The notes under the pieces: model-generated
Seen by the model: only the letters and a program-made list of their open reading frames with translations
What the model was told of the DNA's origin: nothing
The model's database searches: none
Translations under genes and position numbers: made by a program
Source: a virus
Lineage: Duplodnaviria > Caudoviricetes
DNA length: 55,094 bases
Strand: one strand, 5' to 3'
IMG/VR virus record: IMGVR_UViG_3300044955_000042
Span: 1-55,094 of that record
Shown: piece after piece, positions 3,316-52,266 of the stretch
Numbering within the stretch: the stretch's first letter is position 1
How the letters are laid out: each line of letters begins with the position of its first letter

Positions 3316-4908
3316 ATGAGCGACAACCCACACCTTGCCTGTCCATTTGTTGATTGTGGATCTTCGGATGCCTTCAACTGGAATGATGATGGGTACGGAC
3401 ACTGCCACTCTTGTAGCGAGTCTTATCCAAGCAAGGGCATGGGAGAGACATTTGACTGGGCCAAAAAGGAGTACCCACTGAAAACCATGATAAACCCAAA
3501 AACAGCAGAGATTACGGGCTTTACCTATAAGGGCATCCGTGGGCTTGATGAAGAGGTAGCAAAACTTTACGGCATCCAAGTTCAGATGTCTAATGGTGAG
3601 CCTATCCGTTATGCTTACAAATACCCACACACAGTAAAGTATCGAGACTACAACAACAAGGCTAACTCCTGGGTCAAAGATGTCGGTCTTGGGATGAAAC
3701 AATTCTTTGGTCCAAACTTTAACTCCGGCTCTTCTAAGCGGCTCTATATCACTGAGGGTGAGTTTGATGCAGCCTCACTGTTCCAGATCTTGGGACAGAC
3801 ATTCCCTGTGGTGTCGCTCCCCAGCGCATCTATCGGTGAGAAGTTTCTTAAGGCCAACCATGAGTATCTTGCAAACTTCCAAGAGCTTGTCTATGCAGGT
3901 GAGCTAGATGATGCAGGCAGGAAGGCAGCTGATAAGCTCTACGAGGTCTTCCCAGAGAAGTTCTACTATGTCCCAATGAACAAGTACAAGGATGCTAATG
4001 ACTTCCTTACAAACGGTGACAGTGAACTTCTCAAGTGGGCAGCACTCAAACCACAGCGGTACTCACCAGAGAACTTCTTCTGTAGTGATGAGGCTGTTGA
4101 GACTGCTATCACTCAGGAGAACCCATACGAGTATACACCAACTGGCCACGAAGAACTTGATAGCATGTGTCGTGGTCTTGTGAAGGGTGGAATCACATTC
4201 ATCAAAGCACCGCGTGGTACCGGTAAGACTGAGATCATCCGCTTCTTTGAGACTGCAATGCTTCGTACAGAAACTTGCCGTGTTGCCATGCTCCATATGG
4301 AAGAGATGAAGTCTACAACGTATCGTGCTATGGCCACCTATCAGCTTGGTGTGAATGTCCGTACTAAGGATGATGCGTCATGGAACGGTATCTCTGAAGA
4401 CGAGGTTGTCACAGCAGCTAAAGATGCTACCAAGGGTGAACGTACTATCATCTTCGAGATGATGGCACACGACGATCCTATGAAGCTCCTAGACTATGTA
4501 CGGTTGGCTTCTACAGTCTACGGTGCTGAGTATATCTTCATCGACCACGTTCAACGTCTAGCATACCTCTCAGATGCAGGTGTTGATGGTGCAACCTCAA
4601 CTCTAACCACACTAGGTTCAAGAATGGCACAGCTTGCCAAACAGCTGAACATTGGGGTGATCTTCATCTCACAGGTCAATGATGATGGACGTACCAAGTA
4701 TGCTGCTTCACTTGAAGAAGAGGCCATCATCTGCATCAAACTTGTACGAGATGTAGAAAGCGAAGATCAACTGTTGAGAAATACTACCGGTCTCTATGTT
4801 GATAAGAACAGACCATTCAGTAAGCTGGGTAAAGCTGGTGCTGTTTATTATGAGCCAGAAACAACACTCTTAGAAGAGACTACTTGGCCAGAGGGGCTTG
4901 CAGCATGA
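3316..4908 (+). CDS. T7 gp4-like DNA primase-helicase
   Basis: N-terminal Zn finger (CPFVDCGSSD...CHSC), TOPRIM (ITEGEFDA, ELDDAG, KDAND), Walker A APRGTGKT, IFIDH, KNR. Confidence 0.93.
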   Translation: MSDNPHLACPFVDCGSSDAFNWNDDGYGHCHSCSESYPSKGMGETFDWAKKEYPLKTMINPKTAEITGFTYKGIRGLDEEVAKLYGIQVQMSNGEPIRYAYKYPHTVKYRDYNNKANSWVKDVGLGMKQFFGPNFNSGSSKRLYITEGEFDAASLFQILGQTFPVVSLPSASIGEKFLKANHEYLANFQELVYAGELDDAGRKAADKLYEVFPEKFYYVPMNKYKDANDFLTNGDSELLKWAALKPQRYSPENFFCSDEAVETAITQENPYEYTPTGHEELDSMCRGLVKGGITFIKAPRGTGKTEIIRFFETAMLRTETCRVAMLHMEEMKSTTYRAMATYQLGVNVRTKDDASWNGISEDEVVTAAKDATKGERTIIFEMMAHDDPMKLLDYVRLASTVYGAEYIFIDHVQRLAYLSDAGVDGATSTLTTLGSRMAQLAKQLNIGVIFISQVNDDGRTKYAASLEEEAIICIKLVRDVESEDQLLRNTTGLYVDKNRPFSKLGKAGAVYYEPETTLLEETTWPEGLAA

Positions 4909-41942: not shown

Positions 41943-43400
41943 TTAGTATCCAAAAGTTGGGTCAGAAATTTGAAACCCAGATCTTCCGCCGGAAGAATCA
42001 AAATCAAATAAGTTGCTTCGGGGCCTTGTCATAACGCCATATCTTAGAGCGTCATAGAGGTGGTCTTCAGCTTTTGTGTCTACGTCTTCCGGGTTGTTTT
42101 TATCAAGTGGTAGTGAGGGAAGCTGTGCAATAATATTTCTGCAAGTGTCAAAGAAGACCAAACGTGGCTCTTCAGTAAATTCGTCGATCTGTAAACGTCT
42201 ATGCAGTTCGTTTTTACCAGCTACGCGAGATCCCCTACTTCTATCTGCAGGTCTCCACCTACAACCACGTACAATCATTTGCTCTGCAAGGCTTGGCCCT
42301 GTGTCACCTCTGTTGTGCCAGAGTGAGGAGTCAAGCACCCCATAACGCATCTTATCCCCTGCTTCGTGCTCAATCTCGTTGATTGTATCAGCAAGGTCAA
42401 CAGCTGTCATCTTGGAGACGTAAAGCTCCCTATAGACAATCAGTTGCTCAGAGGGGCTAACAGCAAACCATACAACACCTGTATAAGAACCATACCCATA
42501 GTCAGCAGCCCTAAATCGTGGCCAGTTGTTTGGTATGTCAAAGGGTTCAATAACGTGATCCCTATAAGTAAACTCTGGGAATGCTGCACCTTCATTCGTT
42601 GTCCAGTCACCCTCAAGAAGTTGTCTTCTTTGGTGCTCTGGTAGTGAGAGAAGGTTAGCCTCATACATACCATCTTCAGAAAGGTATGGGTTGTCAAAGA
42701 GTGTGGCTGGGATGAACCGCCTTTTAAAGAGTGGTTCACCTTCTTTAGCGTGTCCTTTTGGCCAAGTAATAGTTTCACCTGAATCGTAATCAGTGGCCCA
42801 AAAAGGTGTGTTGTGTGGTGCAGGGTCAATAAAGGTCTTTTTCACCCACATGTGACCAGCACCGCCAGGGTTTGTAGTAGCTCGTTGGTAGAGCTTAAGC
42901 CCACTGTCTCTTGAAGTACGGAGACGTGATCTCATATAGTTCCAGGCAAAAGGTGTTTGCCACTGTGTAAGTTCATCAAAGCCAATCCAGTTAAAGGCCT
43001 GACCCTGGTACCGTGTAACGTCATCGTCTCTGTCTAGGTAAGACATCCACAGTGTAGCACCCGAAGGGAACACCCAGGTCTTATCCCTTTCAAGAAACCT
43101 TGCCTCTGGAATAGCTTTTGGGTAAAGCTTTTTAGAGACTGAGATAAGTTCTCGAAGTTCCTCTGTACTACGACGAACAAGAAGCATGTTTGCATCTGGG
43201 TTGTTCACATAGCGGATAGGGTCAGCAACCATAGCGAAAGATTTACCACCACCAGCAGCACCACCGTAGAGAACTTCTTGCTCAGAAGACGAAAGAAAGT
43301 CTGTCTGTGGTCCTGGGTTAGGCTGAAAGATAATATTCTGAGCTTTTGCCGTATCAACCTTTGATGGTTTTATCGAGGCCGGAGTAGAGCTCATCATCAA
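41943..43400 (-). CDS. terL: Terminase large subunit
   Basis: PNPGPQ, YGGAAGGGKS, FDELTQ, TTNPGG, DYGY, EDH.YDALRY. Confidence 0.95.
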   Translation of the reverse strand: MMMSSTPASIKPSKVDTAKAQNIIFQPNPGPQTDFLSSSEQEVLYGGAAGGGKSFAMVADPIRYVNNPDANMLLVRRSTEELRELISVSKKLYPKAIPEARFLERDKTWVFPSGATLWMSYLDRDDDVTRYQGQAFNWIGFDELTQWQTPFAWNYMRSRLRTSRDSGLKLYQRATTNPGGAGHMWVKKTFIDPAPHNTPFWATDYDSGETITWPKGHAKEGEPLFKRRFIPATLFDNPYLSEDGMYEANLLSLPEHQRRQLLEGDWTTNEGAAFPEFTYRDHVIEPFDIPNNWPRFRAADYGYGSYTGVVWFAVSPSEQLIVYRELYVSKMTAVDLADTINEIEHEAGDKMRYGVLDSSLWHNRGDTGPSLAEQMIVRGCRWRPADRSRGSRVAGKNELHRRLQIDEFTEEPRLVFFDTCRNIIAQLPSLPLDKNNPEDVDTKAEDHLYDALRYGVMTRPRSNLFDFDSSGGRSGFQISDPTFGY

Positions 43401-48509: not shown

Positions 48510-48750
48510 CTTCCCAATCTCTTTTTCTCTGAGGTTCAAAAACATCTGAAGAAGATAACATACCTTCAAGGTACATACATCTCTCAATTCGATCTAGTGT
48601 CTCCCAATTCCCTGTCGCTTCGTAGTAAGCCCTACGAACGTAGAAGACATCAGACCTTGGAATATGTACTCTCCGTAGTCTGTTAGGGTCGCCACTGACA
48701 AGAGCTTTGTAGAACTCCTCAATGACATTATCACTAGAGTATACTTGCAT
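48472..48750 (-). CDS. Conserved hypothetical protein, first gene of the late block
   Basis: EEFY.AL, HIP.SDVFYVR motif. Confidence 0.7.
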   Translation of the reverse strand: MQVYSSDNVIEEFYKALVSGDPNRLRRVHIPRSDVFYVRRAYYEATGNWETLDRIERCMYLEGMLSSSDVFEPQRKRDWEDVPIGGEESEQT

Positions 48751-48782: not shown

Positions 48783-48994
48783 GCTCTTTACCTAAAGAGG
48801 ACGACAAAAACTCTTCTCCTCCTTTTTGGTTAGAGATCTAAAGATATTTTGGGATTTTGTGTACATACTTTAAGGTATTATTACCTATAATAGATATACT
48901 AATAAGAGATAATAAGACTCTAAGTTGTAAACCTATAAGTACTACCTTTAAGTATTACCTTTAAGGTAATAACCTCTAAGTATATACTTAAAGT

Positions 48995-49024
48995 ATTATA
49001 TACCGCGAACCAAAAGGATGTCAA
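48995..49024 (-). promoter_or_regulatory. Consensus sigma70 promoter facing the late block
   Basis: TTGACA-N18-TATAAT. Confidence 0.7.
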
Positions 49025-49718
49025 GAGGGAGATGAAAATAAATTATAACTTTATTCACCTCCTCTACCCCCTCTCTCAAAAGCTAGGAAAGAGCCCTAAA
49101 TCACCTTTTGATGGTATTAACATGAAGGTAGACCGCCCGCCAGGGCTTAGAATAGTCGTAGGAGGCTCTGTAAGGGGGTCTACAGCGTCATCTTGGGCTG
49201 TTTGGCTACTACCCCCGCCCAGAGCTATTAGAGGCCTTCTCAGCGGCTTAAAATGCTTAGTTGTAAAATGGGGTAATATAGTACCTAATGTTATAATATA
49301 ACACTATTTTAGCAATCTGTTAACTTTTGCTGCTTTACAAAAGTAAAAATTCCCCCCGCTGTCAGTGTGGGTATATATATAACGTACATCCCCCCCATGG
49401 CCCACGCCCACCCCTTGTTTATAAGGCTCAAATTGATTCTCGCATAGGTAGAAAAAGAATATTATTCTCTCCTATAGGTTGAATTTGAATGTGTTTCTAC
49501 CTTGGGTTGCAAACTTTTACAGAATACACGTTGGGGGGAGTGCAACCTATAGGGCATATACAATCCCAGAAACTCTCCCATAGGTTGCACCAACCATCAC
49601 TCGCCCAAAGGTTGAACCAAAACCCCCCTTGCAACCTATAAGTGAATCCCTCCCGATTCTCGTGTGGGTTGTGTTCAATAACGCTTTGCAACCTCACGTT
49701 GTAAAACTAAAAAAGCGT

Positions 49719-49757
49719 GAACGAATGGGGAACAAACTAGGGGAACAAACCGTGAAA
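49719..49757. promoter_or_regulatory. Alphaproteobacterial LexA boxes (GAAC-N7-GAAC)
   Basis: GAAC-gaatggg-GAAC at 49719-49733; GAAC-aaaccgt-GAAA at 49743-49757. Confidence 0.55.
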
Positions 49758-49832
49758 ACGCCGTAGGGGTCGAAATTAGCCTCTCTGGTGGCCACCTTGC
49801 GTTTTGAGGTGGTTCAGGTGCTGAAAAAAGAG

Positions 49833-49869
49833 GTTCCTATCCTGTTCCTATCTTGTTCTCTTTTCGTTC
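49833..49869. promoter_or_regulatory. Tandem LexA boxes: four GTTC in 11-bp phase
   Basis: GTTC at 49833, 49844, 49855 and 49866 form three overlapping GTTC-N7-GTTC sites. Confidence 0.65.
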
Positions 49870-50025
49870 TTGTCGTTCTCTTTTAGGTTGTGTTGCTGCT
49901 ATAGGTTCAACCCTAGGTTGCTCGCGGGTAGTTATATATACGCGCGCGTTTTCTATTTCTTTTAAAAGGGGGGTAACATTCCGAATGTTGAATGTGAAAA
50001 AAGATGAAAGAAAATTATTCAATAA

Positions 50026-50055
50026 AAACAATGGGTTAGCGGTAAGTCATTGAAA
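50026..50055. promoter_or_regulatory. Two inverted IHF-like sites
   Basis: AAACAA-TGGG-TTA (+, 50026-38) and TTTCAA-TGAC-TTA (-, 50043-55) versus consensus WATCAAnnnnTTR; both flanked by A/T tracts. Confidence 0.5.
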
Positions 50056-50074
50056 TCATTGAAGAAAAAAGGTG

Positions 50075-50103
50075 TTGCACCTGGTGTTTTGCCTTGATAG
50101 AAA
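50075..50103 (+). promoter_or_regulatory. Putative early sigma70 promoter
   Basis: TTGCAC-N17-TAGAAA preceded by an A-tract; the structured leader starts about 10 nt downstream. Confidence 0.5.
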
Positions 50104-50109
50104 CGTCTC

Positions 50110-50520
50110 AAGGTTTAGCGGATCACCGCAACGGCCTAGGGGGTTTCCCCCACGCTCTTTTGACCCAGACGCGGGGTTTATACGCGGAGCAGACAAAACC
50201 CTATGTAATAGGCGTTCGGATTTTCTTATGCGTGGTATAGGCCACAGCTTGCATAGGTTCGGCACAACATCTCTTTCAAGAATTGCTCGGCTTTTCTTGT
50301 TATTGGTAACGTGGAATACGCTTTCGGTTGACCGTGGCAACGGCTCAAGACCCCACACATACTAAGCGCGGCGAGCGCCCAAATTGGCACGGGCAAAGTG
50401 TATTGACACATGGACACACTCTCTATCCATATGCTGGGCCAACCCAGATAGATTATGTCTAATGGATAGGTGTGTGTTCCGTGTGTTAGTGTAGGGTGCA
50501 TCATGGTGGTGCATCTTAAC
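50110..50520 (+). ncRNA. Long structured early leader / putative ncRNA containing a boxA-like sequence
   Basis: Series of hairpins, CGCTCTTTTGAC at 50153-64, and a ~30-bp G-U-rich stem (50400-50491) capped by two hairpins. Confidence 0.6.
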
Positions 50521-50539
50521 CTGACACATGGAGAAAACT

Positions 50540-51064
50540 ATGTCTAATCTTTCAAGCCGTATCAAAAGACTACACACTCGTTCTAAGAATGCTGGACGCG
50601 ACTACGTTCTGTTATTCGTTGAATGTGTAGAGACTATGGAAGAAAACTGGACGCCATTGGCTGAGCTGATCAGTGGTGCCAACCCAAAAGACAGTGCGAC
50701 ACTTCGCAAAATGGCTGGCCACGTTCTGGCTGGTTGGAAGCTCTCAAAAGACACAAAGCACCGCACTGGCCTACGTTTCTCAAAAGAGACAGGTGCGACC
50801 TATAATAAAAACAGACTGGCTGAGCTCAAATCTTTGGCTGAGCAAGGCAATGTTCTTCAAGGCAAAGTGATTTCTGACCTCTTGCAAGGTGACAAAAAGC
50901 CTGACGTAAAGCCTGTATCGGCTGAGGATCTTGCCAAAGCCTATCTGACAAGCGTTCACAAAAAGCTGGACGCTGGGGCTATCTCTACCGCTGACGCCCT
51001 TCAAGCCCTTCGTATGGCCGCAAAAGCTCTTGAGGCAGAATTGACAGCTGAGTGCCCACACTGA
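50540..51064 (+). CDS. First early protein, hypothetical
   Basis: GGAG RBS favours ATG 50540; followed by a terminator. Confidence 0.75.
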   Translation: MSNLSSRIKRLHTRSKNAGRDYVLLFVECVETMEENWTPLAELISGANPKDSATLRKMAGHVLAGWKLSKDTKHRTGLRFSKETGATYNKNRLAELKSLAEQGNVLQGKVISDLLQGDKKPDVKPVSAEDLAKAYLTSVHKKLDAGAISTADALQALRMAAKALEAELTAECPH

Positions 51065-51081
51065 ATGGTGAAGTTTGACTG

Positions 51082-51113
51082 AGCCTCCCTGCACCAAACA
51101 GGGGGGCTTTTCT
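51082..51113 (+). terminator. Rho-independent terminator after the first early gene
   Basis: AGCCTCCCTG/CAGGGGGGCT stem followed by TTTCT. Confidence 0.75.
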
Positions 51114-51157
51114 AACCCCACCCCCTACTATCATGACACATGGCGAAAGGACACACT

Positions 51158-51412
51158 ATGAACACTTGGGCACACGTTAAATCTGACATGGCGCGGAGTC
51201 TCTTGGAAGGCCGCGTATTTGCCGACAAAATAAATCTTAGCATAGTTATTGACACAATGCTTAACGATCAAGCTGAGGACGCTGTAAACATGGACATACC
51301 TGAACGGGTTTTCTGGTCACGTGCTGATGCTTTGGACAGAGCACATGCGGCATACATGGTTGGTGACTTTGGCCTATGCATGAACCGTATCAAAACATTC
51401 TATCTCGTATAA
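51158..51412 (+). CDS. Early hypothetical protein
   Basis: AAGGA RBS favours ATG 51158. Confidence 0.7.
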   Translation: MNTWAHVKSDMARSLLEGRVFADKINLSIVIDTMLNDQAEDAVNMDIPERVFWSRADALDRAHAAYMVGDFGLCMNRIKTFYLV

Positions 51413-51434
51413 TATGACACTGGAAGGACACAAG

Positions 51435-51680
51435 ATGTTTCACGTTATTATCTCTGCACACAATGACGCTGTGCTACACTCCACACAATACCCCGTGAGA
51501 GACACATACACAGCCGCTCTGTGGGCAACTAGACAAGGCGAGGTAGGGTATGCCCTAAATGACACAGAGGAGTTCCTACGGGACGGACACGGCTTAGGCT
51601 GGTGTGAATACACAGGTGACCCAGTATTCGTGACATGCCACGAGGTTGAAACTAATATCTTTACATCAGAAGGAAAATGA
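51435..51680 (+). CDS. Early hypothetical protein
   Basis: AAGGA RBS favours ATG 51435. Confidence 0.7.
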   Translation: MFHVIISAHNDAVLHSTQYPVRDTYTAALWATRQGEVGYALNDTEEFLRDGHGLGWCEYTGDPVFVTCHEVETNIFTSEGK

Positions 51681-51862
51681 AGATGCCTGACATTTCTATG
51701 TGCTTTAGTGACACATGCAGCCTTATGGCTAACTGTTACCGAAACCCTGCTAGTGGGACAAAACCCTGTGAGTATCGACAGTCGTATTTTAAAGGTCTTG
51801 ACACAGAGGGTGAAGACTGCAAATACTACTGGCCACTGAGAAACACACAAGAAGGAAAATGA
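51677..51862 (+). CDS. Small Cys-rich early protein, paralog of 1847..2023
   Basis: MPDISMC...TC.....CYRNPASGT.P.E.RQ..F......GEDCKYYWP. Confidence 0.85.
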   Translation: MKMPDISMCFSDTCSLMANCYRNPASGTKPCEYRQSYFKGLDTEGEDCKYYWPLRNTQEGK

Positions 51863-52266
51863 AGATGAAAAACTATGTTATCTTTGCAGTCGACAATGAC
51901 AATGACCTACACACTGTGTCTAAGTTCTTGCGGCATGTTGACACACAGCGAGCACTTGGGAACATTAAAGGGACACTCAAACCCTGTATCGGATCTTACA
52001 AGGGACAGATGGAGAACAGCTACATCATGCGCCTTGATGATTTTGACCTTGTTGTATCTGGCTCTGGCTATGTAGACAACCAAGAGTCAATACTGTTGGT
52101 AGAAGAAGGACATCGTGGCGTCCTATATGGCACACTGTTGTTCAGCTCAATATCTATGAAAGATCAACCTCTGGGCATACTTCGGGCTGTCCCACCAGAG
52201 ATGGCTATGACACATGACGGTTGGACATACCGACCAGACCTTGACACATACTATGTCGTAGTATAA
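51859..52266 (+). CDS. Early hypothetical protein
   Basis: 135 aa with G.YKG..E.SY, QESIL and WTYRPD motifs. Confidence 0.75.
   Translation: MKMKNYVIFAVDNDNDLHTVSKFLRHVDTQRALGNIKGTLKPCIGSYKGQMENSYIMRLDDFDLVVSGSGYVDNQESILLVEEGHRGVLYGTLLFSSISMKDQPLGILRAVPPEMAMTHDGWTYRPDLDTYYVVV

Follow-up and report, generated by a model that had tools for sequence, protein, structure and literature searches.

The early region and its leader

The stretch of DNA analysed here (the window) is a virus record of 55,094 bp that is 99% complete, i.e., complete or nearly so. By its proteins, it represents a podophage in the group of Pseudomonas PA11, Salinivibrio CW02, and Roseobacter CRP-6, with a DNA polymerase that has 44-52% identity to those of these three phages. 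A primase-helicase, a ribonucleotide reductase, a portal, and a terminase are also recognisable, and no RNA polymerase gene was found among the 20 window proteins scanned. Minus-strand genes stop at 48587, and plus-strand genes run from 50540, across the end of the record, to about 13500. This layout puts the subject of this study, a highly structured leader, at the right edge of a 1.9-kb divergent noncoding region and directly before the first rightward gene, gp1 (50540..51064, plus strand; 174 aa). A preliminary description, made from the sequence alone, had marked the leader as 50110-50520 and proposed it as a candidate antitermination RNA or new noncoding RNA. The 3′ boundary given there was too short: 8 out of 8 homologues of gp1 begin at the ATG at 50540, and not at 50528, so that the leader extends to 50539 and includes the gp1 Shine–Dalgarno (SD) sequence GGAG at 50530-33.

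Alignment of the relatives of gp1 brought in the loci L002, L003, and L004, with L005 and L009 being the same or nearly the same phage as L002. The leaders of these relatives share blocks with that of the window, most strongly in the last approximately 140 nt. A pattern derived from the most conserved hairpin retrieved two further phages from a viral collection, L006 and L007, the latter showing no difference from L008 and L010 in the 592 nt that were compared. The counts given below refer to five distinct sequences, i.e., the window, L002, L004, L006, and L007; one sequencing run also contains contigs of further relatives. A covariance model (R1) built from the window, L002, and L004 gave scores of 74.6 bits for L007 (and the identical L008 and L010) and 58 bits for L006.

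A conserved RNA structure precedes gp1

The conserved unit at the 3′ end of the leader (about 50400-50539, plus strand) spans approximately 140 nt and contains five helices as well as a three-way junction. The junction is closed by stem P1, which consists of P1a (50412-19 with 50472-79) and P1b (50421-30 with 50462-70). Hairpin P2 (50434..50447; CUGGG-CCAA-CCCAG) has an invariant CCAA loop, and 4 of its 5 stem pairs are changed on both sides, the stem variants being CUGGG/CCCAG, CGGGG/CCCCG, UGGGG/CCCCA, UCCAG/CUGGA, and ACUGG/CCAGU. The same is true for 3 of the 4 modelled pairs in hairpin P3 (50449..50461; UAGAU-UAU-GUCUA). Hairpin P4 (50492..50518; UAGGGUGCAUCA-UGG-UGGUGCAUCUUA) is nearly invariant in the five sequences, lies 9 nt before the SD sequence, carries an AUG in its loop (50503-05), and forms on the plus strand only, because several of its pairs are G-U. 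The preliminary description had counted 9 bp for this last hairpin before the ribosome-binding site; the hairpin is there, but it has 12 pairs. Beneath P4, segment M (CCGTGTGTTAG; 50479..50489) pairs with segment D (CTGACACATG; 50521-30), the last base of which is the first G of the SD sequence. In the resulting fold, termed conformer B, M/D and P4 together make a hairpin of approximately 22 bp that is stacked directly against the SD sequence.

The covariation analysis that had been suggested as a check supports this fold. Of the 234 cells counted for conformer B, 92.7% pair, compared to 30-46% when the partners are slid by 1-3 columns, and 24 out of 47 pairs are changed on both sides (21 out of 26 for P1, P2, and P3 together); on each of the five measures used, all 500 shuffles fall short. 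Between the two phage lineages, P1 has 33-47% sequence identity, yet 80-87% of its cells pair. Identity between the lineages is likewise 33-47% for P1-P3 as a whole, versus 71-85% for M-P4-D, and 13 out of the 21 pairs in the M/D plus P4 helix never vary. G-U cells exceed A-C cells by 31:2 in conformer B and by 7:1 in the alternative U/M pairing described below, demonstrating that the plus-strand RNA is the folding strand. Single-sequence folds, which are independent of the alignment, contain P2 and the M/D plus P4 stack in all five sequences and P1 and P3 in four, with L006 being different. We conclude that the 3′ part of the leader is a conserved, strand-specific RNA structure, kept via compensating mutations in otherwise unrelated phages.

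The position of the element is conserved as well. In 5/5 sequences, its end lies 9-16 nt upstream of the start codon with which the first gene opens, and it is present once in the window and once per record in the four related records that were searched whole. The motif precedes the first early gene in two phage lineages, in both of which a gene of 174-182 codons follows the element. The L006 record is a complete 63-kb phage that has no match to the window terminase or DNA polymerase; direct BLASTP of the two terminases gives an E value of 0.004 over 173 residues. The first gene of L006 and L010 belongs to phrog_1448, and the first protein of these phages has no similarity to gp1 of the window by BLASTP or profile comparison. 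As far as the compared sequences go, the RNA element is better conserved than anything around it. The phages with the motif have seawater and estuaries as source habitats.

Two exclusive pairings share one segment

Segment M is complementary to D and also to segment U (TTGACACATGG; 50403..50413), a near-repeat of D, making M the pivot of two mutually exclusive foldings. Pairing of U with M extends P1 to give conformer A, an irregular hairpin of approximately 30 bp (50403-30 with 50462-89; about 28 pairs) that is capped by P2 and P3 (50434-47 and 50449-61), with P4 on its own and both D and the SD sequence unpaired. In conformer B, the M/D plus P4 stack has 21-22 pairs and U is free. The stem of approximately 30 bp noted in the preliminary description is indeed present and corresponds to the U/M form, the fold of minimum energy being the M/D form.

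In the five sequences, 87.3% of 55 U/M cells pair, compared to 24-47% when slid, and 4 out of 11 pairs are changed on both sides. Shuffles do as well in 9/500 cases for the percentage paired and in 17/500 for the covariation score; it is the percentage paired and the slid controls that support U/M. Relative to the window (M, GTG; U and D, CAT), L002 and L004 have a G to T change in M and T to A changes in both U and D, at pairing positions. At another position, L006 has a T to C change in M and A to G changes in both U and D. In addition, the variants 50481 G>A and 50487 T>C in a close relative convert G-U pairs to Watson–Crick pairs in both U/M and M/D. When either helix is enforced, the predicted energies differ by 0.9-6.6 kcal/mol, with conformer B being lower in 5/5 sequences.

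A third exact copy of TGACACATGG (D′; 51134..51143, plus strand) lies just before the SD sequence of gene 2; exact copies are present in the 55 kb at 50404, 50522, and 51134 only. At the corresponding site between terminator and gene 2 SD (51134-51160 in the window), L002 (3610-3643) keeps TATCATGACACATG...GAAAGGA, and L004 (1470-1485) has TGACGCAAG. The L004 copy fits the M segment of L004 itself, but the L002 copy does not follow the M of L002. Judged from these sequences, M might also reach the start region of gene 2, or the D′ motif might have its own reader.

The 5′ part of the leader

Upstream of the conserved unit, the hairpins listed in the preliminary description are all found in the sequence at their places, and almost all are part of the minimum-free-energy fold (MFE fold). 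Sequence and MFE fold agree on the 5′ hairpins GCGG/CCGC (50118-21 with 50126-29) and GGGGG/CCCCC (50139-43 with 50147-51), and on the nested hairpins at 50225-57, in which CTTATGC/GCATAGG encloses GTGGT/GCCAC. Another hairpin, TTGACCGT/ACGGCTCAA at 50328-48, has the same stem in L002 and L004 only. All are on the plus strand, for which the leader has a folding energy of -155.9 kcal/mol compared to -135.0 +/- 5.9 for shuffles (z -3.56; 0/100 as good); on the minus strand, z is -1.84 and 3/100 shuffles are as good. The GGGGG/CCCCC hairpin (50139-51) is the only terminator-like site in the leader, and a weak one.

The pseudoknot that had been proposed (CGCG/CGCG with GGGTTT/AAACCC) is possible on paper, but it is absent from the predicted fold and is located in a part of the leader that is replaced in a close relative. 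This relative (one sequencing run, X6 contig) keeps 50058-50166, with no differences at 50114-50166, as well as 50340-50620; 192 unlike letters replace 50167-50339. The variable middle of the leader thus delimited (50167..50339, plus strand) includes both the proposed pseudoknot and the nested hairpins at 50225-57, and here L002 and L004 have loose similarity only to the window. The hairpins at 50118..50151 are identical in one close relative and have no recognisable counterpart in the distant homologues. Extending the conserved structure upstream of 50386 gave inconsistent results across the five sequences, and, by sequence comparison, conservation is demonstrable for the 3′ third of the leader only, about 50400-50539.

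A small hairpin at 50366-50378 (GCGC-GGCGA-GCGC) is present in L007 with a compensatory change (GCAC-GGCGA-GUGC) and absent in L002 and L004. The window and L007 also have its flanks in common, namely CCCCA..TAAGC and CCCAA..GC(A/T)CGGG.

Possible functions of the element

Three features, namely the constant spacing from the start codon, the presence of one copy only, and the strand, point to an element that belongs to the gp1 messenger and acts in cis. Moreover, the fact that the conserved core abuts the SD sequence and start codon in all five sequences argues for a role at the level of the messenger rather than, or besides, antitermination. Our preferred reading, which we put forward tentatively and at somewhat less than even confidence, is that the last approximately 140 nt act in cis and post-transcriptionally in the 5′ untranslated region of the first early messenger, via an A-to-B refolding/processing mechanism. 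We infer the folding order, any cleavage, and the effect on expression as follows. Because U, P1, and M are transcribed before D, the nascent RNA would first adopt conformer A, a long duplex of the type that RNase III cuts, with cleavage being putative here. Later, by refolding or after processing, it would shift to the somewhat more stable conformer B. As a result, the gp1 message would have a stable hairpin at its 5′ end, or close to it, beside the ribosome-binding site, and this would govern stability as well as translation for the first early protein. Both conformers have the size of an RNase III site (about two turns, 20 bp or more), although cleavage of either is putative.

Several observations weigh against this reading. 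A hairpin that merely has to exist does not explain why the whole P4 stem is nearly invariant, which suggests a sequence-specific partner. The modelled accessibility of the stretch from SD to AUG (-14 to +3) in A and B is 0.40/0.38, 0.55/0.44, 0.64/0.72, 0.42/0.47, and 0.61/0.59 in the five sequences; there is no consistent difference, so simple masking of the SD sequence is not supported. M/D overlaps the SD sequence in the window and L002 only, and in L006 the SD sequence is 8 nt further downstream. As regards the structure itself, the count of both-side changes in U/M is reached by 146/500 shuffles, and the close-relative variants 50423 C>A and 50472 G>T each break a P1 pair near the internal loop. 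Finally, there are only five distinct sequences, and the counted alignment was fitted to the model structure and therefore leans toward structure.

The invariance of P4 spans phages that differ in GC content and in their first genes, and this is the main argument for another reading, to which we give a small but real chance. Here, a host machine that is universally conserved, namely RNA polymerase or the 30S subunit, would dock on the P4 and M/D hairpin, which hardly varies. The element would be a protein-independent module that is exchanged among unrelated marine phages and placed before the first gene. Its effect would be either to let the polymerase resist terminators, as with put RNAs but through a fold that is new, or to recruit ribosomes to the message that is made first after DNA entry.

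We consider it similarly unlikely that the leader is an antitermination RNA in the stricter sense, i.e., a put-like, protein-independent (or Nus-dependent) RNA that rides host RNA polymerase past a terminator into the early operon. The terminator that had been noted after the first gene is there, as an intrinsic-terminator-like hairpin at 51083..51113 (plus strand) with 9 pairs (51083-91 with 51099-107) followed by TTTTCT. A similar hairpin follows the first gene in L002 and L006, so that it is found in 3 out of the 4 loci that reach that far; in L010, a weak candidate was picked by eye. This conserved terminator keeps the antitermination idea alive. Also in its favour, and as first described, a scan found no sigma-70-like promoter between the terminator and gene 2. 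The higher identity of P4 and M/D compared to P1-P3, next to unrelated neighbour proteins, would fit a universal target such as RNA polymerase, and put RNAs likewise consist of two adjacent stem-loops downstream of early promoters (PMC9378689). On the other hand, there is one copy per record rather than two related copies, and an RNA that rides the polymerase has no need for a fixed spacing of 9-16 nt to the start codon. A transcription attenuator is a different matter: no U-run follows M/D plus P4, D being followed by GGAGAAAAC, and the conserved part is therefore not an attenuator.

The boxA-like site CGCTCTTTTGAC (50153-64, plus strand), on which the antitermination proposal had leaned, is not supported as a boxA. 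The gamma-proteobacterial consensus is GYTCTTTAANA, which may differ in other taxa, and the mutations C4T/T6C made together inactivate boxA (PMC5725501). Relative to this consensus, GCTCTTTTGAC at 50154 differs at 3 of the 10 specified positions, with the limit that the consensus is gamma-proteobacterial and the host not identified. There are 149 sites in the window with at most 2 mismatches to GYTCTTTAANA, and the boxA-like site is not among them. The counterpart in L002 and L004, CGCTTTTTATAC, has a T at position 4, one of the two positions in C4T/T6C; MAFFT aligns CGCTTTTTATAC elsewhere relative to the window site, and this alignment is unstable. No boxA-like site was seen by eye in L006 and L007.

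Upstream of the element, no plus-strand sigma-70-like promoter was found in the scanned loci, except for a weak one inside the L002 leader. A promoter candidate at 50075-50103 (TTGCAC-17-TAGAAA) was discarded, as the close relative has an altered -10 region.

Slightly less probable than antitermination, in our view, is a riboswitch-like sensor, in which the P1-P2-P3 junction binds a small molecule or host factor, favours U/M over M/D, and so switches gp1 translation. The architecture invites this idea, given a junction closed by P1, covarying stems, invariant loops (CCAA in P2), a three-segment alternative pairing linked to the ribosome-binding site, and two forms that are close in energy. However, the junction has short strands that vary, conservation is highest in the P4 stem, which is outside the putative aptamer, and modelled SD accessibility does not track the switch. 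Rfam gives no riboswitch match even at E values up to 10: in Rfam 15, the best match for 49950-50600 under this setting is a microRNA model with 23.8 bits, versus a gathering score of 100.

The loop of P4, with its AUG, raises the question of an upstream reading frame. In the window, the frame at 50503-50547 has 14 codons and ends with a TAA that overlaps the gp1 start (ATGTCTAA); ribosomes translating it would open M/D plus P4 and be coupled into gp1. An AUG with a frame of 14-17 codons is present in 4/5 sequences, ending at the gp1 start or a few codons inside it (L006 and L007). The peptides start with M-x-V-H-(P/L)-(N/S)-L-T-(H/Q), and the AUG has an SD-like GGGUG 6 nt before it. By contrast, L004 has AAG for AUG, and its frame exceeds 38 codons without a stop. 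The first 9 codons are in nucleotides already constrained by pairing, the silent changes CTG>TTG and ACA>ACG also covary with M, so that nothing requires a peptide, and an open frame of 14 codons is not unlikely by chance. Taken together, this makes a function of the frame quite improbable.

A free-standing noncoding RNA cut from the early transcript, i.e., a processed decoy or anti-defence RNA, has an equally slim chance of being correct. The leader is abundantly structured, would be made first on infection if transcribed, is conserved across lineages, and has long duplexes as possible processing sites. Nevertheless, the element is joined to a ribosome-binding site and start codon in 5/5 sequences, is without a terminator of its own, and is not similar to a known RNA family.

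The least probable explanation is a DNA-level element (operator, origin, or promoter) with protein-binding repeats: U, D, and D′ are direct repeats with M as inverted copy (TGACACA has three direct copies and one inverted; GGTGCATC occurs twice, 13 bp apart), P4 is readable as two direct repeats, and iterons are nearby at 49439-49930, but P1-P3 keep pairing at 33-47% identity with 21/26 pairs changed on both sides, the G-U to A-C ratio of 31 to 2 means that one strand only folds, the distance to the start codon is fixed, and no plus-strand sigma-70-like promoter was found by scan here.

A minus-strand protein across P4 was rejected as well; its frame is open in 5/5 sequences, but the ends and flanks differ.

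Relation to known systems

In the lambda N leader, a hairpin sensitive to RNase III lies between nutL and the N ribosome-binding site, and terminator tL1 lies after N. The arrangement in the window is similar, in that the leader of the first early transcript is several hundred nt long, the SD sequence is directly preceded by a large hairpin, and the first gene has a terminator after it. In contrast to lambda, no boxB or N homologue is recognisable here, and the boxA-like site departs from the boxA consensus. Whereas N is short and disordered, gp1 has 174 aa and is predicted to fold (pLDDT 82.9). Moreover, N and boxB co-vary, but the hairpin described here is invariant across lineages with different first genes.

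The early leader of T7 has the RNase III site R0.3 before gene 0.3. As in T7, we are dealing with a podophage of the T7 supergroup that has a long untranslated leader before the first early gene, an irregular hairpin of approximately 20-30 bp a few tens of nt before the start codon, and an anti-restriction gene in the same early block (here, an S-adenosylmethionine (SAM) lyase homologue). Different from T7 are the three-way junction and the alternative pairing, as well as the presence of one copy and not a series of sites between later early genes; RNase III cleavage is putative in our case.

Translational riboswitches and other three-segment platforms resemble the element in that M pairs exclusively with either an upstream mimic (U) or a ribosome-binding-site segment (D), at similar energies. 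They differ in that, here, no ligand pocket is evident, SD masking is inconsistent, and conserved sequence is concentrated in a stem.

HK022 put RNA is approximately 70 nt long, consists of two stem-loops, occurs as two related copies, one per early operon, and acts via the zinc-binding domain of the RNA polymerase beta′ subunit (PMC9378689). The element would resemble put as a cis-acting structured RNA that has adjacent stem-loops and is placed downstream of an early promoter and upstream of terminators, and it would likewise need no phage protein. However, the element has one copy of approximately 140 nt, with five helices and a junction, and is fixed beside the start codon.

The IMG/VR data have been mined for structured RNAs before, and the resulting catalogue holds 8,495 unnamed and uncharacterised candidates of 29-151 nt (PMC10690425). 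It uses the same data source and likewise contains covarying motifs within 25 nt upstream of phage genes, so that our motif may be in it as an unnamed entry. The Rfam scan that had been proposed assigned no family, with 0 matches in the whole window at gathering scores (Rfam 15). In the literature, we found no description of the motif, only general catalogues plus the put and boxA papers. Judged from these searches, the element appears to be a structured, cis-acting phage leader RNA that is so far undescribed and has no Rfam family.

Phages without their own RNA polymerase need the host to express their first genes within minutes, and to our knowledge, few RNA devices serve early phage expression, namely nut, put, and the T7 RNase III sites. 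The RNA described here is supported by covariation, has an alternative pairing, and is located at just this point of early expression. It is common to two lineages whose terminases, DNA polymerases, and adjacent proteins show no detectable similarity. Should the partner prove to be a host machine, the element would provide control in a compact and portable form, and an entry point to how uncultured marine phages govern their early genes. As a site of processing and stability only, it would still be a well-documented new example of a familiar class.

Distribution of the motif

Beyond the loci named above, R1 identified no other homologue among 92 further loci, which were collected with five degenerate patterns (P4, M, and D) from viral contigs and species genomes, known motif holders being excluded. 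Within this set, L098 was rejected as a homologue on reading by eye. Nine pattern matches in one Clostridiales metagenome-assembled genome and one in a sister genome were rejected because they are 13-nt tandem repeats. The loci L065-L067, L070, L073, L075, L077, and L078 from these two genomes have a multi-copy element with units GGGTG(C/T)AT(C/T)(A/G)TGC. P4 itself can also be read as two 13-nt units like the Clostridiales repeat, which is probably a coincidence.

A protein-based scan with the first proteins of L006 and L010, together with a scan of species genomes, yielded no new member. BLAST searches of cultured phage DNA with 49000-52000 (for near relatives) and 49600-51200 (for distant ones) gave no match, and a 66-nt core query at E values up to 10 gave two chance matches only. 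Among phiKMV-like phages, relatives of phrog_1448 occur as early genes (255 cultured phage records), and an improved model, R2, did not find the motif in five of these phages (phikF77, Prado, Pagan, Draal01, and glasur).

In L009 (record G004), the terminase is 95% identical to that encoded at 41943-43400 of the window, gp1 is about 73-75% identical, and P1-P3 of the leader about 68%. The contrast would be explained, as far as sequence identities can tell, either by an early region that evolves much faster than the packaging genes or by mosaic genomes.

Neighbouring genes and other features

The eight relatives of gp1, with 60-93% identity, come from a large protein collection. No match was obtained by tblastn in cultured phages or in single-protein scans of viral contigs with gp1 and with a 489-aa protein, and no known family could be assigned to gp1. 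The AlphaFold model, predicted to fold with the pLDDT given above, has no match in the PDB at E <=0.001; the highest VIA Z score is 5.7, which falls in a range that the tool calls common. Structure comparison also gave weak winged-helix rows, and there was no usable match in the ESM Atlas.

Further downstream, the early gene at 51859-52266 matches a SAM lyase family (Pfam PF23780, E 5.8e-8), with an anti-restriction function as in T3, which confirms that this is a block of early genes. In L010, the first gene is followed by an AT-rich spacer of 300 nt (4040-4340) that is rich in TTATTACA / TGTAATAA repeats.

Upstream of the leader, 49439-49930 contains at least 5 copies, in both orientations, of a repeat of approximately 15 nt with the core CTATAGGTTG / CAACCTATAG. 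At the equivalent position upstream of the leader, L002 and L005 have a corresponding set whose core is shifted (CTTAGGGTTG / CAACCTAGG). From their sequence, these repeats resemble iterons, or else operators to which a DNA-binding protein of the phage would bind.

The promoter scan found no promoter for the rightward early genes comparable to one that faces leftward. The latter, at 48995-49024 on the minus strand, is a sigma-70 promoter with a perfect 12/12 match to the consensus (TTGACA-18-TATAAT), directed toward the endolysin and the late gene arm. It is adjoined by a 40-nt tandem and inverted repeat at 48918-48998.

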